Virus record (IMG/VR): IMGVR_UViG_3300021449_000180
Origin: a virus
Direction: 5' to 3' (one strand)
DNA: 39,612 bases
A model generated the notes under the pieces. It saw only the letters and a program-made list of their open reading frames with translations, made no database searches and was not told where the DNA came from. Of this stretch, positions 3,312 through 37,885 are shown one piece after another. Each line of letters opens with the position of its first letter. Position 1 is the stretch's first letter. Position numbers and translations under genes: made by a program.

Positions 3312-4406
3312 TTAGATGTCTTGAATCACGACGAAGTTGTCGCCGCGCATCACGTGGAACCCGATTTCTTGTTTCGCCGCGAACCAGGTGGTCAGCGGGT
3401 CGTTCTCCGTCCAGGTCTGGGTCATCCAACCGTTCGCGCTGTCGACGCTGACGTCGCCGTGCGGGGCCTGCTGACCCATTTCGTTCAGGCGGTCCAGGAA
3501 CCAGGGCATGAACGCCGACGCCTGGCCGGGGGCGGTGATGACGATGTTGCGGACGTTCGTGGTGCCGTCGTGCGGTTCCAGGACGTTGTCCCGGGCCGCG
3601 TTCGCGGGGTCCGCCACGACGTCGCCGGATGCGTCGACGGGTTCGCCGTCGCTGTTGAACCGCGGGAGTTGCGTGCGGATGGGCCTGATCTGGTCGATCT
3701 GGAAGCTGTCGGCCAACTGCTGTTCGGTCAGCGCGGCGATGCTGTCGTAGTCGCTGGCCAGGTCGTCGTTCAGCTTCATGTCGCGGACGACGTTGGGACT
3801 CATGTAGGCCGTGATGCTGCCGGCCTGTTCCAGCGCCGACCCGTCCTGGCTGATCAGGCTTTCAGCGTCGATGAAGTCGTTCAGCGGTGTGCTGTTCGCG
3901 GAGTCGCTGTACGCGGTCGACGGCGTCAGGACGTGCGAACTGGGGATTTCGGGGTGGGCTGTCGCGCCCTCCGTCCCGATGATCCCGTTGATGTCGCCGT
4001 TGATCGTGCCCTGCCAGGCGACCTGCGCCCGCGTCATCAGGACGTCTTCCATCAGCGCGTCGCTGATGGCGTTGAACAGGTTCAGGATTTCGCGCTGACT
4101 GTTCAGTTCGGTGTCGACCCCTTTCTCCGCCTGAATCTTCTTCTTGAAGGTCGACACCGACAGGTCGCGTTCGCCCAGGTCGCCGATGTCGCCGACGGGG
4201 CTTTCGGACGCCAGGTCCGTCTGCCGCATCGTCGTCCGCAGCCCGTCCATCGTGAAGTGCGTTTCACGACTGTCGGACAGTTCGACCAGCGGGAAGATTT
4301 CCGACGTGACCAGTCGGTTCCCGCCGTCGATCTGCTGGAGTTGCCGGACGATACGGTTCTGGATGGCTTCGGGGCTTCGAAGGTTCGCTTCGCGTAGCGT
4401 GAACAT
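3312..4406 (-). CDS. Major capsid protein (HK97 fold, lambda gpE-like position)
   Basis: 364 aa from the internal ATG at 4406 (MFTLREANL...), 3 nt after the upstream stop. The track ORF extension to 4457 is Arg/His-rich. The gene order protease/scaffold, decoration protein, capsid mirrors lambda C-Nu3-D-E. Confidence 0.75.
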   Translation of the reverse strand: MFTLREANLRSPEAIQNRIVRQLQQIDGGNRLVTSEIFPLVELSDSRETHFTMDGLRTTMRQTDLASESPVGDIGDLGERDLSVSTFKKKIQAEKGVDTELNSQREILNLFNAISDALMEDVLMTRAQVAWQGTINGDINGIIGTEGATAHPEIPSSHVLTPSTAYSDSANSTPLNDFIDAESLISQDGSALEQAGSITAYMSPNVVRDMKLNDDLASDYDSIAALTEQQLADSFQIDQIRPIRTQLPRFNSDGEPVDASGDVVADPANAARDNVLEPHDGTTNVRNIVITAPGQASAFMPWFLDRLNEMGQQAPHGDVSVDSANGWMTQTWTENDPLTTWFAAKQEIGFHVMRGDNFVVIQDI

Positions 4407-4408
4407 GA

Positions 4409-4975
4409 CTATAGTCCCCCGGTGATGATGACCGCCGTCCTGCCGCCGACGCCCCATTCGCGGGCGATGGTGGTGAACACGCTGCCGTCAGGGAAGGCGT
4501 CGTGGCCCAGCGCGATGTTGATGTCGTTCGCGCTGCCGTTTTCCAGCGTGCCGTCGCCGGCGATGCCCAGGTCGTTCGTGACAGCGGCGTCGATCCCTGT
4601 CGTTGTGGGGCCGCCGTAGGCTTCGATGTCGCCACCGTCACCGACTTCGACCAGGTCCCCGGGGGAGGGGTCGTAGCCGTCGTCGGTCGGCATCCAAAGG
4701 ACGTGTACGCCCAGGATGACGGTTGCGCGTCCGACGCTGTCGCCAGCGGCGAAGTCGGCTTCGCTGCTGTTGCGGTCGCGGAGGTCCTCCGGCGTGTTCT
4801 TCAGAAGGCCGACGAACGCGGCGTCCGTGCCTTCGACCAGTTCGACCTGCGGGCCGTCGGGGGCTTCCCCGACGACAGCGACGCCCTGGCCTTCGTCGGC
4901 GACGTCGCCGTTGCTGTCGGCCAGCACTTCGACGTCGACGACGTGTCCGGGCGTGTAGTGGTACTGGGTCGCCAT
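4409..4975 (-). CDS. Putative head decoration protein
   Basis: 188-aa G/D/V-rich ORF immediately upstream of the capsid gene, the position of lambda gpD and DUF2190-like proteins. Confidence 0.45.
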   Translation of the reverse strand: MATQYHYTPGHVVDVEVLADSNGDVADEGQGVAVVGEAPDGPQVELVEGTDAAFVGLLKNTPEDLRDRNSSEADFAAGDSVGRATVILGVHVLWMPTDDGYDPSPGDLVEVGDGGDIEAYGGPTTTGIDAAVTNDLGIAGDGTLENGSANDINIALGHDAFPDGSVFTTIAREWGVGGRTAVIITGGL

Positions 4976-4977
4976 GA

Positions 4978-7302
4978 TCAGTCAGCGCCCCCGGTTGCCG
5001 CGTCGACGACGTCCGCCCGGAGGGCGTCGACGTCGTCGTACTGGCTGGCGTTGATTTCGTACTGGTCCTGTAGGTACTGGGCGGGGGACTTCCCAGACGC
5101 TTCGGCGTGGACCCGGTCAGCGCCGTCCATCGCGGACAGCGCCATGTCGTCAGCGTCGTCGTTCGTGGTGCCGGCGGTCGCGGTCGACCGCCCAGTCGTG
5201 TCGGTCTGGGCCGCCGCCGCGCCGCGGGTCTGTTCTTCCTGCTGGACTTGCATCGCCTGGTAGGCGCGTTCGTTCCGCAGGGCGCGAAGGTCCTGGGCCG
5301 ACTGGCCCTTCAGGGCTTCCGCCCGGTCGTCAACGTCGTCGTTCGACGTGTCGAACCGGGCCAGGTCGGCTTCCAGGTCCGCGATTTCGCGCCGCAGCGT
5401 CGTGGTCTGCGCGTCGATCACGGCCTGGGCCGCCGCGTCGGGGCTGTCCGTGACGTCGATGTCGTCGATGTCGACGTCGACGTCGTCAGTCCCAGCGGCT
5501 TCCAGGACGTCTTCGAACGCGCCTGCCAGCGCGTCGATGCTGTCCTGTCGATCTTCCACGACGTCAGACGCCGCCGTGAGGGCGGCCTGGACGTCGTCGT
5601 AGTCGTCAGGGTCGAAGTGTCTCATGTCTGTGTCTACGTCTCCCAGCGCCGACGCTGACGCCTGTAGCGCCTGCGCCGCCGCGGTGACGGTTTGCTGGTT
5701 CGGCGTCTGGGCCGCCTGCTGGATGGTCTGAAGTTCGGACTTCAGGTCCGGGAGGGCGTCCATCGACCGTTCGATACTGGCCGCGTCAACCGCGCCGTCG
5801 TTCACGGCGTCGATCCGCCGGATGCGTGTGGCGTCCAGGACGACGCGGTCGTTGTCCGTCACGGGGTTGCCGTCGTCGTCCCGCCGGACGCGGACGTCGG
5901 CGACGACCGACCAGTCCAGGTCATCGAAGTCGCCGGCTGCGGCGGCGTCGGTAGCCTGGGCGTTCGTCAGGTCGCTGTCGGTCAGGACGATATGGGTTTC
6001 GTCCGTGGTCAGCGCGACGCCGGTCGCTGTTCCGATGTCGACGATCCCGGTCTGGGCGGCGACGCTGTCCTTTCCGGGGTGGTCGAAGCCCAGCGTGACG
6101 TCACCGGCGTCGACGTCACCCTGTAGGGCTTCGAAGGTAGCCGGGATGGTTTCTGGCGGGACGCGGACCGGTGTTGCCTGGCCGCCCAGCGATAGGTCGT
6201 GGTCGCCTGCACCCCAGATGACGCCCATCAAGCCGTCACCGTCGCCTGTGGCGGCGGCGTTGATGATCGTCGACGGGTCGCGGTCGACGGTGATCGACCC
6301 GGTCGCGCGGGCCATCGCGCCTTCCATGATGCCGTCGTCGGGCGACCAAGACGATAGCGTGTCCTGGCGATGACCGACCATCGTCCCGCTTGCGACCCAG
6401 CCGTCGTCCCGTTCCTGGGCGACTTCGATCAGGTACGCCGGGTTGTCGTCGGTCGCGTCGATGCCGGGGGTGCCGCCGGGCTGGCCGTCGATACGGTTAG
6501 CGAAGTTCCCGGTCCCGTCGTTGCTCCGGTCGCGGATGATGCCGTAGGCCGGGGCGGACCCGTCCTGGGTCGGGTTCGACCAAGTGACGGTGTCGCCGAC
6601 GTCGAAACTGTATTCGGCGGTCGCCCGATGGGCGAACGCGTCTTTCGCGGTCTGGTCGTCCCCGCACGGACCGTACCAGGTGTCGCCGTCCACCGTGACT
6701 TCGTGCGCCCCGGTACAGTCGCCGCTGCTGAATTCCGCAGCCTGTTCAGCCGGCGCGCGGGACTGGAACAGCGGCATCCCGTCCTGTTCGCGCGACGGTT
6801 CGAACCCGTCGGCCTGGGCCGCGACCGTCGCCAGGTCGCCGTAGGCGTCCGCCGCAGCGTCGAACGCCGGGGCGTCATCATCGTCGTCGTAGTGGTCGGC
6901 TTCGATCAGGGCGTCAACGACGAAGTCATAACCGTCCTTCAGCGCGTCGTCGCTGATGCCGTCGACGCCGTTCCTGGCTCCGTTGATGGCCGCCAGACAC
7001 GCCACTAAGCCGCTGACGTGCGCGGGGCCGTCCGGCGACTGCCGGAACGGACATTTCCAGCGGCCCTTCGCGTTCCTGGCGTCGTCACCCTCCGGGACGA
7101 AGACGAAGCCGCCGTCCAGCGTGGACAGGTCGGCGTCTTCGTCAGACGGGTTCGGCATGGACTGCCGGGCCTGGGAACCGTCCCAGTCCCCGTCGGTGAA
7201 TTCCAGGTCGGAAGGGTCCGCTGACGTGACGCGGTACGAAACGTCAGACTGGGCCATCAGCAGGAACGCCCGCATCAACCCCAGTTCAGTGTCGACGTCC
7301 AT
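4978..7302 (-). CDS. Large head-maturation protein: putative prohead protease (Mu gpI-like segment) fused to a coiled-coil scaffold
   Basis: 774 aa from the ATG at 7302. The upstream part of the track ORF is Arg-rich and contains the promoter element. The central segment TLGFDHPGKDSVAAQTGIVDIG...LDWSVVADV resembles the Mu I protease family. The C-terminal third is acidic coiled coil (LRREIADLEADLARFD...), typical of scaffolds. Confidence 0.45.
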   Translation of the reverse strand: MDVDTELGLMRAFLLMAQSDVSYRVTSADPSDLEFTDGDWDGSQARQSMPNPSDEDADLSTLDGGFVFVPEGDDARNAKGRWKCPFRQSPDGPAHVSGLVACLAAINGARNGVDGISDDALKDGYDFVVDALIEADHYDDDDDAPAFDAAADAYGDLATVAAQADGFEPSREQDGMPLFQSRAPAEQAAEFSSGDCTGAHEVTVDGDTWYGPCGDDQTAKDAFAHRATAEYSFDVGDTVTWSNPTQDGSAPAYGIIRDRSNDGTGNFANRIDGQPGGTPGIDATDDNPAYLIEVAQERDDGWVASGTMVGHRQDTLSSWSPDDGIMEGAMARATGSITVDRDPSTIINAAATGDGDGLMGVIWGAGDHDLSLGGQATPVRVPPETIPATFEALQGDVDAGDVTLGFDHPGKDSVAAQTGIVDIGTATGVALTTDETHIVLTDSDLTNAQATDAAAAGDFDDLDWSVVADVRVRRDDDGNPVTDNDRVVLDATRIRRIDAVNDGAVDAASIERSMDALPDLKSELQTIQQAAQTPNQQTVTAAAQALQASASALGDVDTDMRHFDPDDYDDVQAALTAASDVVEDRQDSIDALAGAFEDVLEAAGTDDVDVDIDDIDVTDSPDAAAQAVIDAQTTTLRREIADLEADLARFDTSNDDVDDRAEALKGQSAQDLRALRNERAYQAMQVQQEEQTRGAAAAQTDTTGRSTATAGTTNDDADDMALSAMDGADRVHAEASGKSPAQYLQDQYEINASQYDDVDALRADVVDAATGGAD

Positions 7303-8667: not shown

Positions 8668-9783
8668 CTATGCTCCGGGGGCGGTATGTCCGTGCTGGAT
8701 CGACAGCGGCGTCGGCTGGAATTCCGCCTGATCGACCACCTGCGGACGATAGGACTTCGTCGACATGATCGTCTGAACGAACCCATCCGCGACGTCGTCC
8801 TGCGTCAGCGGCACCCGGTCGCCAACCTTCAGCACGGGCCGGATACCTGACCGACAATAGGGATGCAGCGGCGGGATGAACCACGGTGTGTCGACCATGT
8901 CGACGACGTGTTCGTCCATCCGCCGGCACAGGTCGGTCGTCTTCGTGCCGATAGTCGCGTCATAGACACCGTACCGAAAGCCGTTCCGCAGGTAGCGTTT
9001 CCGTGCCGCGGTATTATAGGCGTCCTGGACGCTGTCGTGCGCGATCAGTTCAGCTTTCGTCCGCGCGGTCTGACCCGTGACACCACGTTCCTGCCGGTCG
9101 CTGGGGTCGCCGCCGTCGACCACGACCTGGACGCGTTCCGCCAGTTGCGGGACGGTTTCGTTCTGCGTCAGCCCCAGTCGGAGCTGTCGCGTGATACGGT
9201 CGCCCAGTTCTTCGGCCAGACTGTCGCTGGTCGCGCCGGCGTCGGTTGCGGTCCTGGTCCCGGACAGCAGCCCGGCGTCAACCTTCCGTATATGTCGAAG
9301 CCACTCCCGGTCAGTCCCATCGACCCGCGGTAGCCCCCGGAGTTGATCGGTGTCGACGTCGTCCGGGAGCGTCGTTTGCATCTGGTCGAACGCCGCCCTG
9401 GCCGCCCGCCCAGCGGCGATGCGATGCCGTTCATCCAGCCACGAAACCAGGCCTTCCCGTAGCCGCTGGGCCGCCAGCATCGTGACAGCCTGATTGACCC
9501 GCCCCGGGCCTTCCGGCCCGTCCATGATCGTCTGCACGTCGTTCTCCCGTAGCCACGCCTGGATTTCCTGCATGACCGACCGGATCGACGCCCGCGCCCG
9601 CTGCCGCGCCCGTCGAAGGTCAGTGACGGTCGTCGTCGCCGCATCACGCCCACCGCCATCATCGTCGCCGTCGTCCTGGGCGTGAACCCGCTGATCGTGG
9701 TGGTGATGGTGTTGACGGCAGGCCAGTCCGGCGTCGATCAGGGCGTCGGACGGCAGCGACGGGTCGGGACGGGTCTGCGCCAC
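8668..9783 (-). CDS. Head morphogenesis protein, Mu F / SPP1 gp7 family
   Basis: 371 aa. TARTKAELIAHDSVQDAYNTA ... DLCRRMDEHVV ... PPLHPYCRSGIRPV matches the MuF signature (ArTe..., D..C, PP.HpnCR). It lies directly after the portal. GTG start. Confidence 0.8.
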   Translation of the reverse strand: MAQTRPDPSLPSDALIDAGLACRQHHHHHDQRVHAQDDGDDDGGGRDAATTTVTDLRRARQRARASIRSVMQEIQAWLRENDVQTIMDGPEGPGRVNQAVTMLAAQRLREGLVSWLDERHRIAAGRAARAAFDQMQTTLPDDVDTDQLRGLPRVDGTDREWLRHIRKVDAGLLSGTRTATDAGATSDSLAEELGDRITRQLRLGLTQNETVPQLAERVQVVVDGGDPSDRQERGVTGQTARTKAELIAHDSVQDAYNTAARKRYLRNGFRYGVYDATIGTKTTDLCRRMDEHVVDMVDTPWFIPPLHPYCRSGIRPVLKVGDRVPLTQDDVADGFVQTIMSTKSYRPQVVDQAEFQPTPLSIQHGHTAPGA

Positions 9784-13635: not shown

Positions 13636-13667
13636 CTAAAGCGGACGTGACGCCGTGGACCCCGGGG
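13636..13667 (-). promoter_or_regulatory. Late-gene element copy (CCCCGGGGTCCACGGCGTCACGTCCGCTTTAG on the coding strand)
   Basis: Exact core at 13646-13658. The TTTAG box starts 30 nt before the ATG at 13610. It begins right after the stop at 13668. Confidence 0.65.
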
Positions 13668-13892
13668 TTAGTTCCCGTCGTCGACCAGCAACGCCAGCCC
13701 CGCCGCGATGACCGGGATGACGACCAGATGGAACAGCAGCAGTTCTGCCAAGCGTTCACCGTACCGGTTCACGTACACCGTGGTCTGATAGTCGTGGATG
13801 TAGGCGACAGCCCAGATGAGATACGTGATCAGCGACAGGGCGAACATGGCCCCGACAGACTGGACCTTCAGGAACAACCGCCAGTCCATCAC
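13668..13892 (-). CDS. Small membrane protein (two predicted TM helices)
   Basis: 74 aa with hydrophobic stretches VGAMFALSLITYLIWAVAYI and LLLFHLVVIPVIAAGLALLV. Its start overlaps the TerL stop (GTGATG). Confidence 0.6.
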   Translation of the reverse strand: MMDWRLFLKVQSVGAMFALSLITYLIWAVAYIHDYQTTVYVNRYGERLAELLLFHLVVIPVIAAGLALLVDDGN

Positions 13893-15502
13893 CCGACGAC
13901 CGCCCCTGGGTCGATCACTTCAGCGTCACCTTCGAAGCCTTCATAGCACGCCATCATCGCGCCATCAGCGATGTCCGGGCTATGCCCCAGATGATTCGGT
14001 TTCTTCACGTCGTCCTTCCCCTTCAGGACCAGCACGTCCTCCCCGCGGAACGACCGTTCATCCAACCGGTACACCCGCGCCGCCACCCGTAGTTCCCGTT
14101 CCAGGTCGCTGTTCGGCGGGACCAACAGCCGCCCGTCCTTCAACGCGTTCCCCAGGTCAACCGCCGCTTCCGTCCGCTTGTTCCGGTACCGAACGTCCTC
14201 CCGCGGGTCGTCGTCCCGACTGTCGACTTCCGACCCCTTAAATCGGCGGACGCGATCCCGCGCCCGACGGACGTTATCCGCCACCCCGGACCCCTCCCCG
14301 ATGGCGTCGATCAGGAACAACCCCCGCCTGGGGAGGCGGTCGTCGGTCGCCAGGAACAGGTCTTCGTTCTCCGGGTGATCGTTCACCCGGTCCTTCAGGA
14401 CGACGTCCAGCAGGCCGGTGTCCCAGCGGGCGACGATGACCGTCCGGTCCCCGCCGTCACGGGCGACGTCCCCGCCCATCTGCTGGACGACCGTGCCTTT
14501 CGCTGCTGATGGTGTCGCGCCGTCGTCAGTGACGACGCGGTACATTTCGACCGCCTGATCGACGTGGCGTTCATACCAGGGCCGGAGCGTTCCGCGGCCT
14601 GTCGGCGGCATCACGCCCAGGCGTTTCCGGTACCAGCGCGGGTCCAACGTTCGCCAGTCGTCCCGCGCGACACGCTTCCCGTCTTCCGTCGTGACGGCCT
14701 GTCGGACGTCGTCGACGCCAGGCCAGGGGCGTCCGTTCCAGGATTCGTAGTCTTCTTTGATCAGGTCCAGTTCGACCAGCCCCGCGATGCCATCGTGGTC
14801 GTCGCCATCAGGGAGTTCCCCCAGGTCGCGCTTGACGTTGTGGCTGTCGAAACTGTCGAATTCGATGGTGTGCCAGCGCGGGTCGTCCCACTTCTGAAAC
14901 GCGACGTCACCCCGATCCTGCGGCGGGTTACAGATGGCGACGCAGACGTCGTCCGTCGACGATGCGGTCGACGTCGCCGCGTCGAAGTGGCCCGCGCCGA
15001 CGTCCGGTTTGTCGGCTTCGTCGATAACGACGAACGCCGCCCGCCCATGCCGCCCCTCTAAGTTGCGGGGGTCCCGCGGGCTTCTGAACTTGATCCACCA
15101 CTCCGGGAATTCGTCGTCCGGGAATTCGATCCGGGGAGCGTTTTGCTTCGCCTCCGCCTGAATCGGATACGCTTGTTTCGCGCGTTGATGGATCGTCTGA
15201 AGGAACGGCCAGGACGTGTCCTTCAGCGTTGGATAGTTCCCCGACGTCGTCAGCCCGACGCTGTTCAACCGGGTCATCACGTAGTGATACTGCGCCAGCA
15301 TCACCCCGGCGGTCTTCCCGGTCCCGTTCCCTGACCAGACCAGGACGCGGTGATGGTTCTGGCAGGCCCGCAGTATCTCTTTTTGCGTGTCGGCCAGGTC
15401 GAAGCCCAGGTCCTGGTAGAACTGGATCGGTCGGTCGCGGTAGAAGTCGATTAGGTCCGCCGCGTCGTCAACATCATCGACGCGGTTCCCGTCAGCGGCC
15501 AT
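13889..15502 (-). CDS. terL: Terminase large subunit
   Basis: 537 aa. Walker A VWSGNGTGKTAG and Walker B AAFVVIDEADK. Size and position are typical of TerL. Confidence 0.85.
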   Translation of the reverse strand: MAADGNRVDDVDDAADLIDFYRDRPIQFYQDLGFDLADTQKEILRACQNHHRVLVWSGNGTGKTAGVMLAQYHYVMTRLNSVGLTTSGNYPTLKDTSWPFLQTIHQRAKQAYPIQAEAKQNAPRIEFPDDEFPEWWIKFRSPRDPRNLEGRHGRAAFVVIDEADKPDVGAGHFDAATSTASSTDDVCVAICNPPQDRGDVAFQKWDDPRWHTIEFDSFDSHNVKRDLGELPDGDDHDGIAGLVELDLIKEDYESWNGRPWPGVDDVRQAVTTEDGKRVARDDWRTLDPRWYRKRLGVMPPTGRGTLRPWYERHVDQAVEMYRVVTDDGATPSAAKGTVVQQMGGDVARDGGDRTVIVARWDTGLLDVVLKDRVNDHPENEDLFLATDDRLPRRGLFLIDAIGEGSGVADNVRRARDRVRRFKGSEVDSRDDDPREDVRYRNKRTEAAVDLGNALKDGRLLVPPNSDLERELRVAARVYRLDERSFRGEDVLVLKGKDDVKKPNHLGHSPDIADGAMMACYEGFEGDAEVIDPGAVVG

Positions 15503-15625: not shown

Positions 15626-16159
15626 TCACGCGTCACCCGCCGCCGGTGGCGTCGCCTGCGCCTGCGAGACGGTCTGCACCCAGGCCCGCAGCGGACGATC
15701 ACCGACGACGTCGTCCGGGAGGTCATCCTGGTAGACATTCGCTTCCGCCCGGGGGTCGCCATCGTCGGCGTCGATGTTGTGGTGGATGCAGACGCTGAAC
15801 GGCCAGCGCGACGGGTCCCCAGGGATAGAGTAGTTCCCCGCGCTGGTCCGGTCCAGGGCCGCCGGCGCGGCCAGGTAGAACGACCGGTCGCCCTTCCACC
15901 GCGCAACGATGACGCTGGCAGCGTCGAACTGGTCGCCGAAATGCTGAAGTTCAGTGACTTCCCGGCCCGTGGGGTTCCGGGGCGGCCCGCCGGATTTCAG
16001 TTCGCCACAGATGACGACGCCGCCCGATGCAGCCAGGACGTCCGGCGCTTCCTCCGGTTGCGTACCGGACGCGGGCGACCGGATGCCTTCCCAGCCCAGC
16101 GCCGATAGGCAGTTCAACAGGTGTCGTTCCTGTTCAGTCCCGTCCATCATCCACTCCAT
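15626..16159 (-). CDS. hjc: Holliday junction resolvase, archaeal Hjc type
   Basis: GTEQERHLLNCLSALGWEGIRSPASG...PDVLAASGGVVICGELKSG carries the Hjc E...D...E-x-K pattern. The start is taken at the internal ATG 16159 because the upstream track extension is Arg/Ser-rich. Confidence 0.7.
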   Translation of the reverse strand: MEWMMDGTEQERHLLNCLSALGWEGIRSPASGTQPEEAPDVLAASGGVVICGELKSGGPPRNPTGREVTELQHFGDQFDAASVIVARWKGDRSFYLAAPAALDRTSAGNYSIPGDPSRWPFSVCIHHNIDADDGDPRAEANVYQDDLPDDVVGDRPLRAWVQTVSQAQATPPAAGDA

Positions 16160-16307
16160 CCGGGTTGAGGCCGGGGATGCGGCGTTCGATACCCCGGGCG
16201 ATGCACGCCGTCGCCGTGAGTAGGACGCCGGCGTCGCCACGCTGGTCGTCGTGGTCGTCGTTGCGGTGGGTCAGTAGTGCGGTTTCGCCGTCGTCACTCC
16301 CCACCAT
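16134..16307 (-). CDS. Possible small acidic protein (57 aa)
   Basis: It fills the gap between the 142-aa gene and hjc. The first two thirds show the strong third-position G/C pattern of real genes here. It overlaps both neighbours. Confidence 0.3.
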   Translation of the reverse strand: MVGSDDGETALLTHRNDDHDDQRGDAGVLLTATACIARGIERRIPGLNPDGVDDGRD

Positions 16308-16985: not shown

Positions 16986-17888
16986 TTAGTCGTCGGGGTC
17001 CTGATCCTCCCGCATCGTCGACCGCCTCACTGCCTCCCCCCACGACGCCATCGCGTCAGCCTGCTGGGACTGCGGGTCGTCCAGGATGCCCAGGTCCTTC
17101 AGTTCGCGGATGTCCCGCTGCCGCATCCGCGCTTTCGGCAGGTTCACCGGCAGTTCATCTTCAATTTCGACCGGCTCCCCATTCGTCGGGTCAACGACGA
17201 CGTCCCCGTCAGCGACGATCACTTCGTCCTGCGTCAGTAGTTCCCGGACCTGCCGCAGCGTCACGCCCTTCAACAGCACTTGATGCACGCAGACGTCGAA
17301 CAGCCGGTCAGCCTTCCCGGTCAAGTGGTCAGGACTAACGGGCGGGGCATCAGCAGCAGCGTGCTGGCGCGGAGCAGCCTGCGCGACGTGTCCATCACCC
17401 TGGTCGTCGACGCCGTCACCACCGCCGTCAGCGGCCTGTAATGCGTCCTGACTGACGTGGTCCAGGATCGGCGGGCTATACCGGTCCGCATCCCCCGGGT
17501 AGGCGTCGAACGGCGCATCGTCCATGTAGGTCCAGAAGACACGCCTGATCTTCGTCGCCAGCGGCGGGTCATGCTCCCGGAAATAATCGAACAACCCTGT
17601 CGCATCCTGTTCCGCGGCGTACAGCCCGTGTGACAACGCGTTCCGGTTCCCCTCCGGTGCGCCGCCACCGGACGTCTTCTTTCCCGCCACTGCGTTCCCG
17701 TTCCGCGCCGTCCCGTGGTTTTCAGGCGGCCCCGACCCGTCGCGGGGATGCATATAACACCGTTCATCCGCGTCGTCGACCGGAAACTGGCAGGGCGCGT
17801 CCGTCGACGCCGTGTCGTCGTACCCGCAGACATAGGTATCCCCACCATCGCCGGTAGCGTCGCCCTGTCCTTGGTCGTCGTCCACCAT
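16986..17888 (-). CDS. terS: Terminase small subunit-like protein
   Basis: 300 aa from the ATG at 17888. The track extension to 18323 is Arg/His/Pro-rich and overlaps another gene. The motif APEGNRNALSHGLYA is the GNxNAxxHGxY signature seen in P27/YjcR-type small terminases. It lies upstream of terL. Confidence 0.55.
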   Translation of the reverse strand: MVDDDQGQGDATGDGGDTYVCGYDDTASTDAPCQFPVDDADERCYMHPRDGSGPPENHGTARNGNAVAGKKTSGGGAPEGNRNALSHGLYAAEQDATGLFDYFREHDPPLATKIRRVFWTYMDDAPFDAYPGDADRYSPPILDHVSQDALQAADGGGDGVDDQGDGHVAQAAPRQHAAADAPPVSPDHLTGKADRLFDVCVHQVLLKGVTLRQVRELLTQDEVIVADGDVVVDPTNGEPVEIEDELPVNLPKARMRQRDIRELKDLGILDDPQSQQADAMASWGEAVRRSTMREDQDPDD

Positions 17889-17910
17889 ACAGTATCGGTA
17901 TGCTGTTGAA

Positions 17911-17920
17911 TCCTGATAAC
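17911..17920 (-). promoter_or_regulatory. TATA-like box (GTTATCAGGA on the coding strand) 31 nt before the terS ATG
   Basis: It lies in the 122-nt gap upstream of 17888. The spacing fits a leaderless promoter. Confidence 0.3.
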
Positions 17921-18010
17921 AGTTCGCCGCCACCGGACCACGGACTGCGACCGGCTTCAGGAATGGGCTGCCGCAGGGCGCGGGTCGTGGGTCGGGAGAA
18001 CGGGGGGTGG

Positions 18011-18205
18011 TTAGTTCTGGGTGTCGGTGTCGTCGACGTCCTGTTGGAGTGATTCGATGGCTTGCTGGCGGGTGAGGTAGTCGGTGATGTCCGACATGTC
18101 GACGGTGTCGGCCTGTGCTTTGCCGTATTGGTAGGCGTAGCCGTAGGACAGGAGAACGATGACGAAGGCTCCGGCCCCGATGGCGACGGATAGTGGGTCG
18201 ACCAT
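18011..18205 (-). CDS. Small membrane protein (one TM helix)
   Basis: 64 aa with N-terminus VAIGAGAFVIVLLSYGYAY and an acidic C-terminus. It is the first gene after the late element at 18230-18260. Confidence 0.6.
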   Translation of the reverse strand: MVDPLSVAIGAGAFVIVLLSYGYAYQYGKAQADTVDMSDITDYLTRQQAIESLQQDVDDTDTQN

Positions 18206-18229
18206 GCGGGTGGGTGTTGGTCTGGGTGA

Positions 18230-18260
18230 GGTAAGTAGTGGCGTGACGCGGTGGCTGGGG
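18230..18260 (-). promoter_or_regulatory. Late-gene element copy (CCCCAGCCACCGCGTCACGCCACTACTTACC on the coding strand)
   Basis: Core cgtgacgcggtgg at 18242-18254. The CTTACC box starts 30 nt before the ATG at 18205. Confidence 0.55.
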
Positions 18261-18276
18261 TGTCGATAGGGCGTGA

Positions 18277-18300
18277 GGGTAGGGGTGGTGCCGGGTGGGG
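18277..18300 (+). other. Canonical G-quadruplex-forming motif GGGTAGGGGTGGTGCCGGGTGGGG
   Basis: Four G3+ runs with loops of 7 nt or less, inside a G+T-rich ORF-free tract. Confidence 0.5.
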
Positions 18301-18328
18301 TGGCCGGCGCGACGTGACGACAAGTTGG

Positions 18329-18371
18329 CCCCCGCGGCCTTCGGATGGGTTGTCCTGTCGGCCAGCGGGGG
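18329..18371. other. Stable GC hairpin (11-bp stem with one bulge, 20-nt loop)
   Basis: cccccgcggcc (18329-18339) pairs with ggcc-a-gcggggg (18360-18371). Confidence 0.5.
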
Positions 18372-18514
18372 GTTGCGACGATGTCGTGGGGTAGCTATGG
18401 TGCGTGCGGGACGCCCTCTTTGGACGGATGCCCTATTGGGGGCGTGTCGCCGGGGGCGTTCGTGGATGGTGTCGTGTGAGGGTGATCACTCCGTGTGGGT
18501 GGTTGTCGGGGTGG

Positions 18515-18545
18515 TATTTCAGTCAGCGTGACGCGGTGGCGGGGT
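18515..18545 (-). promoter_or_regulatory. Orphan late-gene element copy (ACCCCGCCACCGCGTCACGCTGACTGAAATA on the coding strand)
   Basis: Core at 18527-18539 overlaps the last codons and stop of the 129-aa gene. No ORF follows for about 290 nt. Confidence 0.45.
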
Positions 18546-18912
18546 CGTCCATGTTGATGTCGGGGTCGATCTGGTAGGCCTGGACGTGCTGGATGTTGTG
18601 GACGGTGGCGTTGTCGACGACGTCTTCGACGTAGGCTTTCAACCGGGTCGGGGTTGGGCCGTCGGCGTGGCTGCCAGTGTCAGTGTGGGTGTCGCTGTTG
18701 GTGTCGACCAGGACCAGCGTTTGTTGTCGTCCGCTGGGCTGGTAGGCGACCGTGGTGATGTAGACGTCGTGACCCCAGTCGTCTGGGTCGTCTGCGGGCG
18801 TCAGGACGTACCTGATGGGGACTTCGGTGCCTGGGCGGGTGGTGGCGTAGGCTGCGAAGACGCCCAGCGTGATGGCCAGGAGGATCGCCAGCGTCGCGGC
18901 GATGGGGTCCAT
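18523..18912 (-). CDS. Hypothetical protein with an N-terminal TM helix
   Basis: 129 aa with N-terminus IAATLAILLAITLGVFAAYA. It is the last gene of the early block. Confidence 0.6.
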   Translation of the reverse strand: MDPIAATLAILLAITLGVFAAYATTRPGTEVPIRYVLTPADDPDDWGHDVYITTVAYQPSGRQQTLVLVDTNSDTHTDTGSHADGPTPTRLKAYVEDVVDNATVHNIQHVQAYQIDPDINMDDPATASR

Positions 18913-19365
18913 CTATGTGTCGCCCCCGTCGGCGTAGTCGTTCAGGCCGCGCTGGGGGGTGTCCAGGCTGTCCAGGTGGCCGTCGGCTTTAATGACGACC
19001 GTGGTGGACTTCGGGATGTAGCAGCCCCAATTCGACCCGTCGATGGTCGGGTTGTTCTTTCGGTGGAACTGCGTGACGCGGACGGCTTTCGGGCTGTAGT
19101 CCTCCCAGTACCCGACGGCCAGGCGTCCGCCGTCGGCGTCGACGTCGATCACGCTGTCGGCGTCAAGTCGGACGACGTCGTGGTCGTCTTCGTCGCGTTT
19201 GAAGTCCGGGAGGATGAACAGGCTGTCGTGGCTGGTTTCCCGGAGGACGGTGACGACGGCGTCTTTTTCGGGGCCGGTCAACATCGGGGCTTGATCGACG
19301 TCATCCCAGGACCGGACCGTCACTGTGCGTAGTTCGACCGTGTCGTCGTCAGGCATCGTGATCAC
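18913..19365 (-). CDS. Hypothetical acidic protein
   Basis: 150-aa ORF. The probable ATG (MPDDDTV) lies in the junction GGTGATCACGATGCCTGA. Confidence 0.6.
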   Translation of the reverse strand: MITMPDDDTVELRTVTVRSWDDVDQAPMLTGPEKDAVVTVLRETSHDSLFILPDFKRDEDDHDVVRLDADSVIDVDADGGRLAVGYWEDYSPKAVRVTQFHRKNNPTIDGSNWGCYIPKSTTVVIKADGHLDSLDTPQRGLNDYADGGDT

Positions 19366-19768
19366 CCTTCGGGTGGACGTTGACCATCAGCGTCCAGATG
19401 GCGGTCGCGTCGGGTGGGTTCGCGTCGATGGCTGGCGCGGCTTCGACGTAGATGTCGGCGTCGCCGTGGTCGCTGTCGATGTCCAGGACTGCTGGGAAGT
19501 CGTCTTCTGGCGCTTCTGGACTGATGGGGTCGCCTTCGAAGGCTGTCGCCGCTTCCAGATACACGGGTTGGCGGTGGTGGTCGGTCGGGTTCGTGGTGTA
19601 GTCGACCGACAAGACGCTGACGCCCTGGTCCTGAAGGGCGTCGACGGCGTCCGCGACGGCCCTGATGACGTCCGGTTCGACGTCGTAGGGCGCGCCATCA
19701 GTCACGTGGATCACCCCACTGGCGGTGACGGGCATCGGCGCTTTGTTCGCGTTCGGCTGCGTCGTCAC
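19349..19768 (-). CDS. Hypothetical acidic protein (start uncertain)
   Basis: 139-aa track ORF with a GTG start. By analogy with the paralogous junction at 20374-20391, the real start may be GTG 19714 or ATG 19735. Confidence 0.55.
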   Translation of the reverse strand: MTTQPNANKAPMPVTASGVIHVTDGAPYDVEPDVIRAVADAVDALQDQGVSVLSVDYTTNPTDHHRQPVYLEAATAFEGDPISPEAPEDDFPAVLDIDSDHGDADIYVEAAPAIDANPPDATAIWTLMVNVHPKGDHDA

Positions 19769-20390
19769 CTGTCGGGTCGTGGCCGTGCCGCCAGTAGTCC
19801 CAGCACGGCCCGCAGACGCTGTTCGCGTCCGCTGGCGCGTCTGTGGTGTCCATCTGTGTGTCCCTGATGGTGTCCAGGTTGGTGAGGGTGAGGCCGCAGG
19901 CCAGGCCGTGGTCGTACCCGTTGAACGTCGTGGATCGATGCCAACGGTGGGTGGCGTCCTGCACCCAGATGCCGGGGTTGTCGACCTGCGACTGGACTTC
20001 CCACGTCAACTGAAAGACCAGCGGCGCGACGTCGTCAATCTCCTGTTGGACGGCTGTCGGGCGGTCCAGGTGCGCGCCGCCGATGTCCTGGCGGACCTGT
20101 TCGCGGCCCGGGTCCGGGCTGCCGGCGGGACCTTCGAAGTTGGTTTCCAGGAAATCTTGGACGTCACGGCCCAGGTCCATCGTCTCACCGATGTACTGCC
20201 AGGCTGTCTGCGGGACGTCGCCCTGGTCGTCATCCGGCAGGGTTGCCTGTTTGAGTAGTGCTTCGGCGACTTCGCCGACTTCTTCGACCAGCGCCAGGAA
20301 CAGCGTCGGGGCGGTCTGGTTGCCCCAGCGGTCGACGTTGTCGTCGGCCTGTCGTTCCCAGCGGATGCGGCGGTCAGTCACGCCAGTCAC
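19698..20390 (-). CDS. MazG-like nucleotide pyrophosphohydrolase fused to a Cys-containing C-terminal domain
   Basis: 230 aa. LFLALVEEVGEVAEALLK and QEIDDVAPLVFQL fit the MazG EExGE / E..D helices. The C-terminal half carries H...NGY.HGLACG...CGPC. Confidence 0.55.
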   Translation of the reverse strand: MTGVTDRRIRWERQADDNVDRWGNQTAPTLFLALVEEVGEVAEALLKQATLPDDDQGDVPQTAWQYIGETMDLGRDVQDFLETNFEGPAGSPDPGREQVRQDIGGAHLDRPTAVQQEIDDVAPLVFQLTWEVQSQVDNPGIWVQDATHRWHRSTTFNGYDHGLACGLTLTNLDTIRDTQMDTTDAPADANSVCGPCWDYWRHGHDPTGDDAAEREQSADARHRQWGDPRD

Positions 20391-25602: not shown

Positions 25603-26505
25603 TTACTCCGACTGAATCCGCGGGGCCAAGAGGAACTGGCCTGACGCGTTCCAGTCGGCGTGATTGAACTGTAGCATCGTCGGGTATTCGATCCCGAACT
25701 TCAGGGTGACGCGGTCCATCTTCGACCGCTTCAACCCCTTCGTCATGTCCCGCAGGTAGTCCAGGCTGAACAGCGAACCCTGGCCGTCACCGTCTTCAGC
25801 GCCCTCTATCCAGGCGGCGTTCGGGAAGACCGCGGTGTCGGCGCGGTCGTCGCTGTCGCTGTCAGCTAACTGGACGTCCCTGGACATGGTTGATCCGACG
25901 ACCAGCGCCGATCCGTCGATGGCAACGCCGGCGTGGTCGTGGCCGTCCGTCAGCGACTTCACGGCGTCGTTCAGCGCGTCGATCCCGGGCGTCGCCCGAA
26001 ACGGCAGGTCGATCCCGGGGACGTCTGGTTCGTCGCGCACGGCGTCGGGGTCGATCAGGCTGAACACGGTGACGCGCTTCATCTGCTGGTCCGGCCTGAT
26101 GACGGCGACGCGCATCCGCGGGACGTCACCCCGGGGGTCCAGGATGTCGATGCGGACGGGGTCGTCGTCCGGCATCCGGGCGAACGACAACGCGGACGTC
26201 AACGTGTCGAAGTTGACGCCGACGGTGACGTCGCGGTTGACCTGGAAGCCGCTGAACCCGTCCGCGTGGACCGTCAGATCGATCATGCCGACGTTCGCCG
26301 GGTCGACCGCAGTGATCGACAGGCCGTCCGGGTCGACGTTCAGTTTCGCCTCTTTGACCAGCGCGGTCGGGAGCCGTAGAAGGGACCGGATCGGTTTCCC
26401 GGTCGTGGCGAACGCCGCGGCGCTGTCGTCCGGGGCGTCGAACCCTAAGTCGTCGCCGGTGTCTTCCGGGACCTGCGTTCTCCCCGCGTCAGGCATCGGC
26501 ATCAC
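25603..26505 (-). CDS. pcn: PCNA (DNA sliding clamp), archaeal type, with a ~45-aa N-terminal extension
   Basis: LNVDPDGLSITAVDPANVGMIDL..., SLFSLDYLRDMTKGL and the C-terminal FLLAPRIQSE match archaeal PCNA hallmarks. The likely ATG is at 26496. Confidence 0.8.
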   Translation of the reverse strand: MMPMPDAGRTQVPEDTGDDLGFDAPDDSAAAFATTGKPIRSLLRLPTALVKEAKLNVDPDGLSITAVDPANVGMIDLTVHADGFSGFQVNRDVTVGVNFDTLTSALSFARMPDDDPVRIDILDPRGDVPRMRVAVIRPDQQMKRVTVFSLIDPDAVRDEPDVPGIDLPFRATPGIDALNDAVKSLTDGHDHAGVAIDGSALVVGSTMSRDVQLADSDSDDRADTAVFPNAAWIEGAEDGDGQGSLFSLDYLRDMTKGLKRSKMDRVTLKFGIEYPTMLQFNHADWNASGQFLLAPRIQSE

Positions 26506-26854
26506 CCTGGGGGACGACGCCCTTCGCGTGGCGTTCGCCGGTCTTCGATATGACGACGTCGACGGTGTCGCCGACCGCCAGGTGCTGGTTGTCGGTGTTC
26601 TGGATGAACGTAGCGACGCCGTCGATGCGGCCCATCGGGTCGCCTTTCTTCGTGTTCGTTCCGTCGTCTTCGATGACGGCTTCGTAGGTCGTGCCGACGG
26701 TGAGGACGTCGTCGACGTTCGACACCTTCTGGCCGTTCGGCAGGGCTTCGACCGTCGACCGGAGGTCGTCCAGTTCGGTGGTGACCGTCACCTGTAGGTC
26801 GTCGATTCGATTCAGCAAGTCGTCCGTCGTGACGTGATCGTCAGGTCCTTCCAT
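26489..26854 (-). CDS. TRAM-domain protein
   Basis: 121 aa. KGDPMGRIDGVATFIQNTDNQHLAVGDTVDVVISKTGERHAKGVV fits the TRAM beta-barrel pattern (G.g.a.idG...fi....vGd.v.v.i.k....a.a). Confidence 0.5.
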   Translation of the reverse strand: MEGPDDHVTTDDLLNRIDDLQVTVTTELDDLRSTVEALPNGQKVSNVDDVLTVGTTYEAVIEDDGTNTKKGDPMGRIDGVATFIQNTDNQHLAVGDTVDVVISKTGERHAKGVVPQGDADA

Positions 26855-28889: not shown

Positions 28890-29012
28890 CGTTCGGTCCT
28901 GTGCGCCAGCGGTGTCGGCCTGGCGCGGGCCGACCGCCCCGCCAGTCGCCCCGACCCGTCGCGGGCCAGGGCGAAGGGCGGTCTGACGGCAGAACCGTCT
29001 GTTGATTCACCC

Positions 29013-29020
29013 CTTATAGA
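29013..29020 (-). promoter_or_regulatory. TCTATAAG box (candidate early promoter, proximal)
   Basis: The coding strand reads GTGTTCTATAAGGGGTG, about 127 nt upstream of the first early ATG (28889). The same octamer recurs at 29504-29511. Confidence 0.35.
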
Positions 29021-29503
29021 ACACGTGTCGTCGGTGCGTTCAGCGGGACCTGAACGCGCGATGGGGTCCGCCGCGCCCTACGGCCAAGGGGGTCGACCTG
29101 CGGGCGCTGGGCCAGTCGCCTGTAACAGCAGTTGAAGCCCGATGTCGCGCCGCCCGGAAGTTCCCGTCACCTGTTGCGTCATCCCCCAGGACAGGGGTCG
29201 GCGTCATCGGGTCGCCCGGTCAATCCGTGGGCGGCGCGGTGTGATGCGTCCGACATCCCGCGGCAGAAATGTGGCCCGGAGCGTCGGGGGCGGGCTGGTC
29301 GACGTCGCGGCGTGACGCCAGGAAGCCCGGGGGCGGCCCGATTATCGACGTCATCTAGAAGCCCCAACCGCCGATGGCGCGATGCCAGTCTGCGACCAGG
29401 TCCGCCCCGCCAGGTGACGCGCCCCACGTACTGTGTCCCCGCGGGGCCAGGGTGGCTATCAGATGTGTCGCCAGTTCCTACCCCCACCTTCGAAGGTTAG
29501 CCA

Positions 29504-29511
29504 CTTATAGA
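29504..29511 (-). promoter_or_regulatory. TCTATAAG box (candidate early promoter, distal; could also fire on the plus strand)
   Basis: The coding strand reads GAATCTATAAGTGGCT. It is an A/T box in otherwise GC-rich non-coding DNA. Confidence 0.3.
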
Positions 29512-29598
29512 TTCGGGTGACTTTCGAAACCCATGATGGCGACCGCAGGCGCGGTCCTTTAGTCACTGCACGGCCTACGCATGGGTGGGTCGCGGGTC

Positions 29599-29617
29599 GA
29601 TTCGAACGGTTCGAATC
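29599..29617. repeat. 19-nt perfect palindrome GATTCGAAC-G-GTTCGAATC
   Basis: Read directly. It is part of a cluster of four TTCGAA sites at 29489, 29523, 29601 and 29610. Confidence 0.8.
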
Positions 29618-29726
29618 CATCAGCCCCGCCAGGCGGCCCGCACCCCGCTTCTGGACGTCACGTTACCCAGGCCGACGCCCAACCACCGACCCACCATCGA
29701 ACACGGACAGCGCCGCCAGCAGCCCC

Positions 29727-29744
29727 GCCAGCGCCGACGCTGGC
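29727..29744 (-). terminator. Hairpin just after the last late gene (7-bp stem GCCAGCG/CGCTGGC, 4-nt loop)
   Basis: It lies 9 nt downstream of the tail gene stop at 29753. No clear oligo-T tract follows. Confidence 0.3.
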
Positions 29745-29752
29745 GGCACGGC

Positions 29753-37849: not shown

Positions 37850-37885
37850 CTTAGTCGGGCGTGACGCCGTGGCCCCGGGGTCGTC
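37850..37885 (-). promoter_or_regulatory. Late-gene element copy (GACGACCCCGGGGCCACGGCGTCACGCCCGACTAAG on the coding strand)
   Basis: Exact core at 37860-37872. The CTAAG box is 29 nt before the ATG at 37825. It starts 2 nt after the stop at 37888. Confidence 0.65.

Follow-up and report, generated by a model that had tools for sequence, protein, structure and literature searches.

The late promoter PR' of phage lambda gives rise to the 194-nt 6S transcript, which ends at the terminator tR', and the packaging RNA (pRNA) of Bacillus phage phi29 is 174 nt long. The cosQ-cosN-cosB region of lambda and the pac site of SPP1 are cos and pac regions located upstream of the small-terminase genes. To our knowledge, almost nothing has been reported on the non-coding RNAs (ncRNAs) of archaeal tailed viruses or on the timing of their early and late transcription. 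Here we describe a 317-nt intergenic tract (positions 18206–18522) of the IMG/VR virus record IMGVR_UViG_3300021449_000180, a stretch of 39,612 nucleotides hereafter called the window. The tract is most likely a composite control region at the boundary between the early and late genes, the core of which is a stand-alone, structured, C-rich ncRNA gene. One copy of a genome-wide promoter-like element precedes no protein gene there but a conserved and structured sequence of 170 nt, located by the terminase genes.

Conservation and structure of the 170-nt unit

The tract had been predicted from the sequence to be free of open reading frames (ORFs), and it is: positions 18206–18522 are empty between the stop codon of a 129-aa gene at 18523 and the ATG of a 64-aa gene at 18205. 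Both genes, like every credible gene of the window, are carried by the minus strand, the coding strand in what follows. The ORFs that overlap the tract, namely four on the plus strand (78, 47, 44, and 57 aa) and one that extends the frame of the putative small terminase (TerS) upstream to a TTG start, are arginine/glycine-rich or histidine/proline-rich, of the type that arises as noise in high-GC DNA. Gene callers left the corresponding gap empty in all relatives, the small ORFs themselves not having been searched against protein databases.

The putative TerS, a 300-aa protein (16986–17888, minus strand), served as the synteny anchor for the comparison with related viruses. Its family is rare: 15 proteins, including that of the window, were found among 5.8 billion, and the 14 relatives are 24 to 92% identical to it. 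The DNA around the relatives with a TerS identity of 92% down to 34% was taken from the IMG/VR, JGI, ENA, and Logan assemblies (sequences designated below by L numbers). In every relative, the gene caller had left a gap of 290 to 670 nt directly upstream of TerS, with 37 to 43% C on the coding strand. Wherever the contig reaches it, this gap holds the promoter-like element with its TATA-like box, a conserved 5' block about 24 nt later, a GC-rich hairpin, the stem sequence of which differs between lineages, and a T-rich tail. A covariance model, R1, built from seven full copies, gives a single strong match in each genome, with a score of 77 to 181 bits and invariably upstream of TerS. About ten lineages of related, uncultured haloarchaeal viruses carry the unit, down to a TerS identity of 34%, with partial matches in the more divergent L011, L016, and L017, and no copy was found by R1 in the viruses CGphi46, BJ1, and HRTV-DL1. 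A search for DNA similarity of positions 17000–20000 against 50,697 phage records gave no match. A degenerate pattern of the 5' region, run on the IMG/VR, JGI metagenome, and GTDB genomes, returned two contigs already known and about 50 chance matches, none of which survived the model or inspection, and an exact pattern of the loop returned the same two viral contigs only. Literature searches yielded no account of an RNA preceding terS in haloarchaeal viruses.

The unit is conserved beyond the neutral level. Its identity to the window is that of the first and second codon positions of TerS, and it is above that of the third positions in every comparison: 0.89 versus 0.79 for L006, 0.80 versus 0.59 for L009, 0.77 versus 0.60 for L014, 0.63 versus 0.52 for L010, and 0.53 versus 0.47 for L018. 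No reading frame is kept, however. Indeed, of the 36 insertions or deletions (indels) that separate the relatives from the window, 31 have a length not divisible by three, including frameshifting pairs in L006 and L075, which are 88 to 89% identical to it, and the substitutions show no 3-base periodicity. The original prediction had named a conserved small ORF as the finding that would speak against it; none is preserved among the relatives, and such an ORF is rejected for either strand by the frameshifting indels and the lack of periodicity.

The unit covers about 170 nt of the minus strand (18319–18492), its predicted ends lying at about 18492 (5') and about 18323–18319 (3'). In the RNAalifold consensus, it is composed of a 5' mini-hairpin, a central irregular hairpin, and a terminal hairpin with an inner stem. 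The 5' block GG(A/G)GUGAU...CUCAC (18476–18492) is invariant in the alignments and contains the mini-hairpin of 4 bp (18489–18486 with 18479–18476). The central hairpin, as projected on the window (18411–18459), consists of three to four short helices (ACGC..GGCG..GCCC / GGGC..CGUC..GCGU) and is joined by a single-stranded C/A-rich linker to the terminal hairpin (18329–18371). The latter is the strong hairpin noticed in the first reading of the sequence. Its GC-rich outer stem has 7+4 bp with a 1-nt bulge (11 to 14 bp in the relatives) and is followed by an internal loop (5'-GANA / 3'-GAA), by an inner stem that has 3 bp in the window and 3 to 5 bp in the family, and by a C/A-rich loop. The T-containing tail CCAACTTGTC (18319–18328), the weakest of the family, lies past the hairpin, and the alignment shows a C-rich, poorly conserved spacer beyond it (18256–18318). 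An RNA of roughly 230 nt reaching toward the second promoter-like element had been proposed; these boundaries are to be revised, as the unit is only about 170 nt long, from 18492 to about 18319, and ends at the hairpin.

Comparison with the relatives, the check suggested along with the hairpin, showed that the helices do covary, best in the terminal hairpin. In a model-guided alignment of ten sequences, 92.5% of the cells at paired positions can pair, versus 82.5 ± 1.2% of those in shuffles; two-sided changes are seen at 13 pairs, versus 4.0 ± 1.4. The result is similar in a structure-blind MAFFT alignment, with 91.6% of the cells pairing, versus 84.3 ± 1.2% in shuffles and 32 to 44% with slid partners, and eight two-sided-change pairs, versus 3.0 ± 1.3; over both kinds of alignment, the slid-partner controls pair in 32 to 48% of the cells. 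The signal comes mainly from the terminal hairpin: helix 6 has six two-sided-change pairs and helix 7 has two of three, the inner stem varying from GGA/UCC to GGG/CCC and GCC/GGC among lineages. The central hairpin has a few two-sided changes and one conserved G-U pair, and its support is modest. The covariation is also strand-specific, with 16 G-U cells, which pair only on the minus strand, versus five A-C cells, which would pair only on the other one. The sense strand of the unit folds with z scores of −2.0 to −4.5 in six lineages and better than the antisense strand in five of the six, whereas the fold of the whole 317-nt tract is not exceptional (z = −1.85 for the minus strand and +0.61 for the plus strand). 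Conservation above the neutral level without a kept frame, compensatory pairs, and strand-specific G-U pairing are the features that would be expected of a structured ncRNA, and the case for a selected element acting at the RNA level appears good for a purely computational one. The asymmetric GA-rich internal loop exceeds the needs of a terminator and hints at a site for protein binding or tertiary contacts; its reading as a K-turn was set aside by eye, the consensus not being matched.

Rfam was searched, as had been recommended, and gave no match at gathering thresholds over the whole window. The permissive mode returned only noise on the tract (E > 2, at the wrong strand or place, the C/D families being on the other strand), there was no match at the unit in five relatives, and a tRNA/tmRNA search was also empty. 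Two readings of the 5' block were considered by eye, neither of which fits fully. The invariant GUGAU is complementary to AUCAC, which we take to be at the 3' end of the haloarchaeal 16S rRNA, so that the block (18485–18492) resembles a Shine-Dalgarno sequence; no start codon lies at the right spacing. In L009 (3308–3320) and L014 (520–532), the block reads GUGAUGA, the consensus of a C box, with GUGAUCA in the window. A C/D-box sRNA (K-turn) is not retained, as the exact C box occurs in these two sequences only, no D box or terminal pairing was seen, and the size is wrong.

A last coding possibility is a leaderless micro-ORF: a tiny protein or leader peptide would be initiated at a GUG found at position +4 of the predicted transcript (GGA-GUG-AUC...). 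Haloarchaea commonly translate leaderless mRNAs, the GUGAU sequence is invariant, and the first codons resemble one another between lineages (MITLT, MMNTH, MIQHS, and MIHTP). The putative peptides nevertheless range from 6 to 44 codons between lineages, their frame is not kept relative to the conserved blocks downstream, eight of the nine indels relative to L009 are not multiples of three, and the 3-base periodicity is lacking. They are moreover basic and rich in proline, arginine, and threonine, unlike the acidic proteome of the virus, and we find this possibility hardly credible.

The composition of the tract offers another way to account for it. Its plus strand is G+T-rich, as first noticed (G 152, T 75, C 60, and A 30): with 71.6% G+T (48% G and 24% T), it is the maximum among all 317-nt stretches of the window, and its GC skew is +0.43. 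The skew, which reaches +0.45 on the plus strand, spans about 17960–18900, including the coding regions of the 64-aa and 129-aa genes, and the genome-wide cumulative GC skew has its minimum at about 17900–18000. As all genes run one way, gene orientation does not explain this local skew. The canonical G-quadruplex (G4) motif noticed at 18277–18300, within the poorly conserved spacer, is indeed there, with 18 runs of at least three G in the tract; what does not hold is the emphasis put on it as a selected feature. A canonical motif also occurs in 66% of mononucleotide shuffles of the tract, it is absent from the three closest relatives (L005, L006, and L075), and elsewhere it is found at differing positions. 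The G-quadruplex is rejected as a key functional element, being expected from the composition and not conserved, and we treat the motif and the strand skew as by-products of the C-richness of the coding strand. A purely structural DNA feature, i.e., G-quadruplexes on the template strand, a replication origin at a skew switch, or a neutral biased spacer, could be consistent with the strongest GC skew of the genome, with the cumulative minimum, and with the presence of the G4 motif. The tract has, however, no AT-rich unwinding element and no repeated origin boxes, a search for repeat families within it found none, its skew extends over the flanking coding regions, and a neutral spacer would not be conserved above the neutral level with covarying helices; such a feature seems highly improbable.

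Promoter-like elements and the ends of the predicted transcript

Two late-type elements had been reported on either side of the tract, and both were found again: the same 15-nt core, GCGTGACGCGGTGGC on the plus strand, occurs without mismatch at 18526–18540 and at 18241–18255. When up to three mismatches are allowed, this core is matched 18 times in the window, versus 8.0 ± 2.8 expected, and none of 100 shuffles reaches 18. On the coding strand, the element consists of (CCCCGGGG)CCACGGCGTCACG, 6 nt, and a TATA-like TAAG/TTAG box, and its core can also be written GCCAC(C/G)GCGTCACG or (CCCCGGGG)CCAC(G/C)GCGTCACG. The family comprises eight copies in the window, all on the coding (minus) strand: five canonical cores at 37873–37860, 33946–33933, 13659–13646, 12950–12937, and 7357–7344, a variant at 296–283, which is the eighth copy, and the two cores of the tract, 18540–18527 (P1) and 18255–18242 (P2), which have CCGCG in place of CGGCG. 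Six of the eight copies are followed by a substantial gene, the ATG of which lies 35 to 45 nt past CGTCAC (mostly at an offset of 34 to 37, and at 42 and 45 in two), and the related viruses carry the same element with a gene ATG at an offset of 34 to 37. The element serves the tape-measure operon, a tail-fibre-like gene, the block of the putative portal and head-morphogenesis genes, the capsid-containing block, and the small genes that follow the terminase. This geometry is that of archaeal promoters producing leaderless mRNAs, as established for haloarchaeal promoters in general and not from data on this virus. Since the other copies precede the tail, portal/head, and capsid modules, "late" is a reasonable label, and the element probably marks a virus-specific (late) transcription programme.

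P1 (18515–18544, minus strand) is made up of CCCC, the core GCCACCGCGTCACG (18540–18527), 6 nt, and the box TGAAATA (18521–18515). It overlaps the final codons and the stop of the 129-aa gene, and no ATG is present at the expected spot. An element of the P1 type occurs at the locus in every relative whose contig extends to it. The conserved GGAGTGAT block (GG(A/G)GTGAT) begins at an offset of 35 to 36 past P1 in the window (35), L009, and L010; because it occupies the offset where the other copies have the ATG, the 5' end is predicted at about 18492. The TATA-like box is thereby placed about 24 to 27 nt upstream of the predicted start, at the fixed spacing shared by the copies of the genome, as would be expected of an archaeal promoter.

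P2 (18230–18259, minus strand), with its core at 18255–18242 and the box CTACTTACC at 18238–18230, has the ATG of the 64-aa gene at an offset of 37, and is a separate, predicted promoter of this clade-specific gene, which would be leaderless. It resembles a duplicate of P1 (18230–18259 versus 18493–18544), with the identical 15-nt core and the upstream CCCC, and in the relatives P1 and P2 also have a similar CCACCCACACG(G/A)AG stretch past the box. P2 and the 64-aa gene are restricted to the clade of the window, neither the ORF nor a counterpart of P2 being evident in the tracts preceding TerS in L009, L014, L010, and L018; as only this clade has them, they were apparently inserted together between the RNA unit and TerS. 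Closer to TerS, an AT-rich box, TTATCAGGATTCAA (17906–17919, minus strand, 18 to 31 nt upstream of the start), looks like a promoter as read from the sequences. It is present before TerS in all lineages and comes without the late element. The existence of P2 and of this TerS-proximal box downstream of the unit favors a stand-alone RNA over a leader.

At the other end of the unit, T makes up 44% of the 12 nt past the hairpin in 12 lineages, versus 12% over the units. The tails read CTTTTCG in L011 and L012, CTTTCCG in L009, CTTTCTG in L016, and CATTTCG in L018, and only CTTGTC in the window. In Haloferax volcanii, the intergenic termination signature is a variable T stretch ending at C, often with a hairpin up to 10 nt upstream, and termination in vivo reached 59% with a hairpin alone (PMC7237163). 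The tails of the relatives resemble this signature and may likewise mark the end of a transcript, that of the window being the weakest match. A scan for intrinsic terminators of the bacterial type did not call the hairpin in the window, L011, and L012. Such terminators have a loop of 3 to 8 nt and at least five T in 8 nt, whereas here the loop has at least 20 nt and the T runs 2 to 4; scans for bacterial terminators and promoters are not informative on this archaeal system.

The 3' edge of the hairpin also coincides with an insertion. L006 (IMGVR_UViG_3300046061_000023) carries about 510 additional bp (6581–7088) exactly at this edge, with a 153-aa ORF (6592–7053) on the opposite strand that combines HTH and HNH_3 domains in the manner of homing endonucleases; its Pfam scores are weak, HTH_7 being just above the curated cut-off and HNH_3 below, and its architecture is typical. 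The 3' arm of the hairpin, GGCGGGGG, is duplicated at the junctions of the insertion, and the rest of the tract follows intact. The location of this mobile gene, exactly at the hairpin edge, marks a module boundary. A reading of L006 as a truncated module, in which homology would end past the hairpin, is wrong, as the tract resumes after the 510-bp insert. HNH and T5orf172 genes are also found in L009, just past the large terminase gene (L009:7629–8614).

The gene order on the minus strand, i.e., an early/replication block (about 28889 to 18523), the tract, the 64-aa gene, the putative TerS, a resolvase, the large terminase (TerL), the head genes, and, across the circular junction, the tail genes, places the tract exactly at the early/late boundary. 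A unit acting in cis at this boundary would make sense of its position: the hairpin would be the terminator of the early operon and the unit a 3' untranslated region (UTR), with P1 and the terminator forming a PR'/tR'-like pair whose read-through is controlled by antitermination or attenuation. All genes do run in the same direction, a hairpin and a T-rich tail follow the last early gene in every relative, the weak tail of the window makes read-through plausible, and the unit stays by the terminase block in L011 and L012 though the upstream gene apparently differs. The conservation and covariation, however, reach the 5' and central parts and not the terminator alone, and the hairpin is separated from the stop codon by about 150 to 450 nt. 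The genes downstream have promoter-like elements of their own (P2, the TerS box, and the late elements at 13659, 12950, and 7357), the antisense endonuclease gene of L006 stands between the hairpin and these genes while the unit is kept, and no antiterminator-like family was found among the proteins scanned, most early proteins being without annotation. We judge a boundary element of this kind unlikely. The long structured leader or attenuator also put forward in the original prediction is weakened by the TerS box, by P2, and by the L006 gene downstream of the hairpin.

The reading that we prefer, with moderate confidence, is a stand-alone late ncRNA of about 170 nt, a discrete functional RNA made from the unit. 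Of the three interpretations first proposed for the tract, the late ncRNA is thus the one best supported, and its expected 5' end near 18490 fits the promoter geometry; its length of about 230 nt does not. At late times, a factor reading the element core and the TATA-like box would activate P1, as at the structural operons, and transcription would start about 35 nt past the element, at about 18492, the place that a leaderless ATG occupies in the other copies. The transcript would carry the conserved 5' block, the central irregular hairpin, the C/A-rich linker, and the long terminal hairpin with its GA-rich loop, the conservation and covariation of which are described above, and would end at the T-containing tail 3' of the hairpin, a tail that is weak in the genome of the window. 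The terminal hairpin, which is surely also exposed to read-through from the early operon, may in addition halt it. The RNA would then function by itself, either in regulation or within a ribonucleoprotein, and not as the leader of the terminase genes.

Several observations weigh against this stand-alone RNA. The TATA-like box of P1 is degenerate in the clade of the window (TGAAATA, TCAAATA, and TCAAGAC). The covariation comes from only about seven to ten sequences, roughly five to eight independent lineages, and, the sample being small and the sequences related, it is supportive and not proof; helices 1 and 2 are uninformative because they never vary, the mini-hairpin lying in the invariant block. 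L010 folds better on the antisense strand. Read-through is likely in the window, since the tail is only CCAACTTGTC and the terminator scan is negative. No known RNA family matches the candidate, and the longest complementary match to a possible target in the viral genome is 13 nt, which is not significant (P = 0.16). Finally, contig ends of the relatives cluster in the region, which could point to a role at the DNA level.

Contig ends, packaging, and the genome setting

The position directly upstream of a small-terminase gene is classic for cos and pac sites, and such a site was the third interpretation proposed at the outset. Some contig ends could be consistent with it. The two ends of the JGI contig Ga0304726_1000143 (43,648 nt; L073:1, L075:4692) abut without overlapping, no more than 1 nt being missing in comparison with L006: it starts with CCCACACGAAG and ends with CTACTTACCCC, which are contiguous in L006 as CTACTTACCCCACCCACACGAAG. 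L002, an assembly from another sample that is 99.86% identical, starts at the identical base. The ends of L073/L075 and L002 map just past the TATA-like box of P2, at about 18228–18226 of the window, at the junction of CTTACCCC and CCCACACG. Four further contigs start 290 to 570 nt upstream of TerS: L010 and L016 before P1, L017 inside the hairpin loop, and L018 11 nt before the 5' block. Ten contigs exceed 5 kb, and in four or five of them the first base falls in the 600 nt preceding TerS; about 0.5 would be expected by a rough calculation.

Were the conserved blocks and the inverted repeat recognized as DNA by the terminase, with a genome end in the tract, a cos/pac site could be the main role of the unit. 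Against this, the starts of the other contigs are scattered at differing points, and the shared end falls within the clade-specific P2 insert and not in the family-wide unit. The other strand consists there of G-tracts (GGGTGGG...GGGTGGGG), a plausible cause of sequencing or assembly breaks, so that the shared end beside P2 either is a physical end of the genome or arises from a break that recurs at G-runs. The contig of the window assembles straight through the site as a circle, with a 55-nt overlap. Binding sites do not form a repeated array: CACG is marginally enriched in the tract (P = 0.04) with irregular spacing, and an array of CACG half-sites for protein binding was discarded on these grounds. 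Nor would a site in duplex DNA be expected to show more G-U than A-C cells, a T tail on one side only, and a promoter geometry. Most known tailed viruses of haloarchaea have genomes with terminal repeats or permuted ends, and unique non-redundant ends are not the pattern reported for them (PMC10544981). As the main role of the unit, packaging at the DNA level appears improbable; a terminus or pac site somewhere in the tract is somewhat more probable but still on the unlikely side. The packaging interpretation of the original prediction thus receives suggestive support only, from the abutting ends of one relative and a second assembly, and the window reads through.

A new kind of archaeal-virus control RNA, tied to packaging, could also be considered: the unit might be a short late transcript, the terminator of which is overridden so as to turn on the packaging and structural genes, or an RNA transcribed from the extreme end of a linear genome and working with the terminase. 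The former would be the first antitermination device similar to lambda PR'/6S or put in an archaeal virus. The latter would turn the ends beside P2 into unique non-redundant termini, a type not yet described for haloarchaeal tailed viruses. We consider either version quite improbable. The stand-alone ncRNA is retained as the preferred reading in what follows.

The source of the window is a haloarchaeal tailed virus with a complete genome of roughly 39.6 kb. The DNA has 65% G+C and encodes very acidic proteins. Positions 1–55 recur exactly at 39558–39612, so that the window represents a complete genome of 39,557 bp assembled as a circle; its ends are therefore arbitrary and fall within a gene. 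On the minus strand, TerL (13889–15502, 537 aa) has 36% identity to the TerL of Halorubrum virus CGphi46 and is more distantly related to those of ChaoS9 and HATV-3. Protein annotation also identified a Holliday-junction resolvase (15626–16240), the head-morphogenesis protein (8668–9783), the major capsid protein (3312–4457), the tail tube (38798–39442), the tape-measure protein (34654–37062), and PCNA (25603–26505), all on the same strand. The early region further encodes a stand-alone TRAM-domain protein (26489–26854, minus strand; Pfam E = 1.3e-7); as TRAM is an RNA-binding fold, it could, purely speculatively, be a partner of a viral RNA.

Next to the tract, the identity of TerS is putative, resting on its position upstream of TerL and on the motif GNRNALSHGLY, which we take to be shared with the small terminases of other viruses; it has no Pfam hit. 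The 64-aa gene (18011–18205, minus strand), taken from the ORF list like its 129-aa counterpart, encodes a protein with a hydrophobic N-terminal half. The 129-aa gene (18523–18912, minus strand), the last one of the early block, encodes a protein with a hydrophobic N-terminal segment, six members of which, including that of the window, were found in a big protein database, the five relatives being 53 to 86% identical. Neither Pfam nor PHROGs gave a family for the 129-aa, 64-aa, and TerS proteins.

A larger ORF-free stretch of 863 nt (28890–29752) separates the end of the tail module from the first early gene. Its composition is ordinary (33% C and 36% G), and its conservation is limited to the last 100 nt in the sole relative available (L008). 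On the minus strand, clear TATA-like boxes of the sequence TCTATAAG occur at two places, near 29510 and near 29020, and the late element is absent. The stretch is likely an early control region and possibly an origin. In the distantly related virus BJ1 (L076), an annotated tRNA-Phe gene and then a 318-nt unannotated gap are found at 19973–20364, upstream of the block running from the exonuclease to the terminase. This is another RNA gene near an early/late junction, and it has no sequence similarity to the unit.

Comparison with known systems

If its transcription is confirmed, the unit would represent a new family of viral RNAs and provide a handle on the control of late genes in haloarchaeal viruses, possibly also on their termination signals. 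Its practical value is limited, the virus group being rare and uncultured.

The closest parallel in layout is lambda PR'/6S: in both cases, a late-type promoter would drive a non-coding transcript of about 170 to 190 nt that ends at a hairpin, upstream of late genes read in the same direction. The differences are several. No Q-like antiterminator or qut-like site was identified in the window, and the late operons have their own copies of the element; as the late genes thus carry their own promoter elements, a dependence on PR'-type read-through is argued against. Conservation and structure extend past the terminator into the body of the RNA, transcription would be of the archaeal TATA/TFB type, and there is no sequence relationship between the two.

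With the cos region of lambda and the pac site of SPP1, the locus has in common a location immediately upstream of terS, conserved non-coding blocks, an overlap with a promoter (as in SPP1), and, in one relative, possible genome ends nearby. It differs from them by the lack of repeated terminase-binding boxes, by its strand-specific, RNA-like signals, and by the circle of the window, which runs through the site. The pRNA of phi29 is likewise a structured RNA of nearly equal length, encoded by a virus that has to package DNA, and the gene of the unit would lie near a genome end if the ends of L073 are real. In the unit, however, the 5' and 3' ends are unpaired, no complementary loops of the kind that build a ring were seen by eye, a conventional TerS/TerL pair is encoded instead of a phi29-type ATPase and terminal protein, and neither sequence nor Rfam similarity exists.

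The intergenic and 3'-UTR small RNAs (sRNAs) of haloarchaea, such as those of Haloferax volcanii, are of the same size class, arise from their own promoter or from the end of an operon, and have a 3' end at a T stretch, sometimes with a hairpin (PMC7237163). Unlike them, the unit is encoded by a virus, lies close to the terminase genes, and has no homologue in cellular genomes, as judged from the pattern scan of GTDB. On the sequence evidence, we rate the unit as a member neither of the lambda PR'/6S group nor of the haloarchaeal sRNA or pRNA groups, but as a candidate for a new family of viral small RNAs carried by a rare, uncultured lineage.

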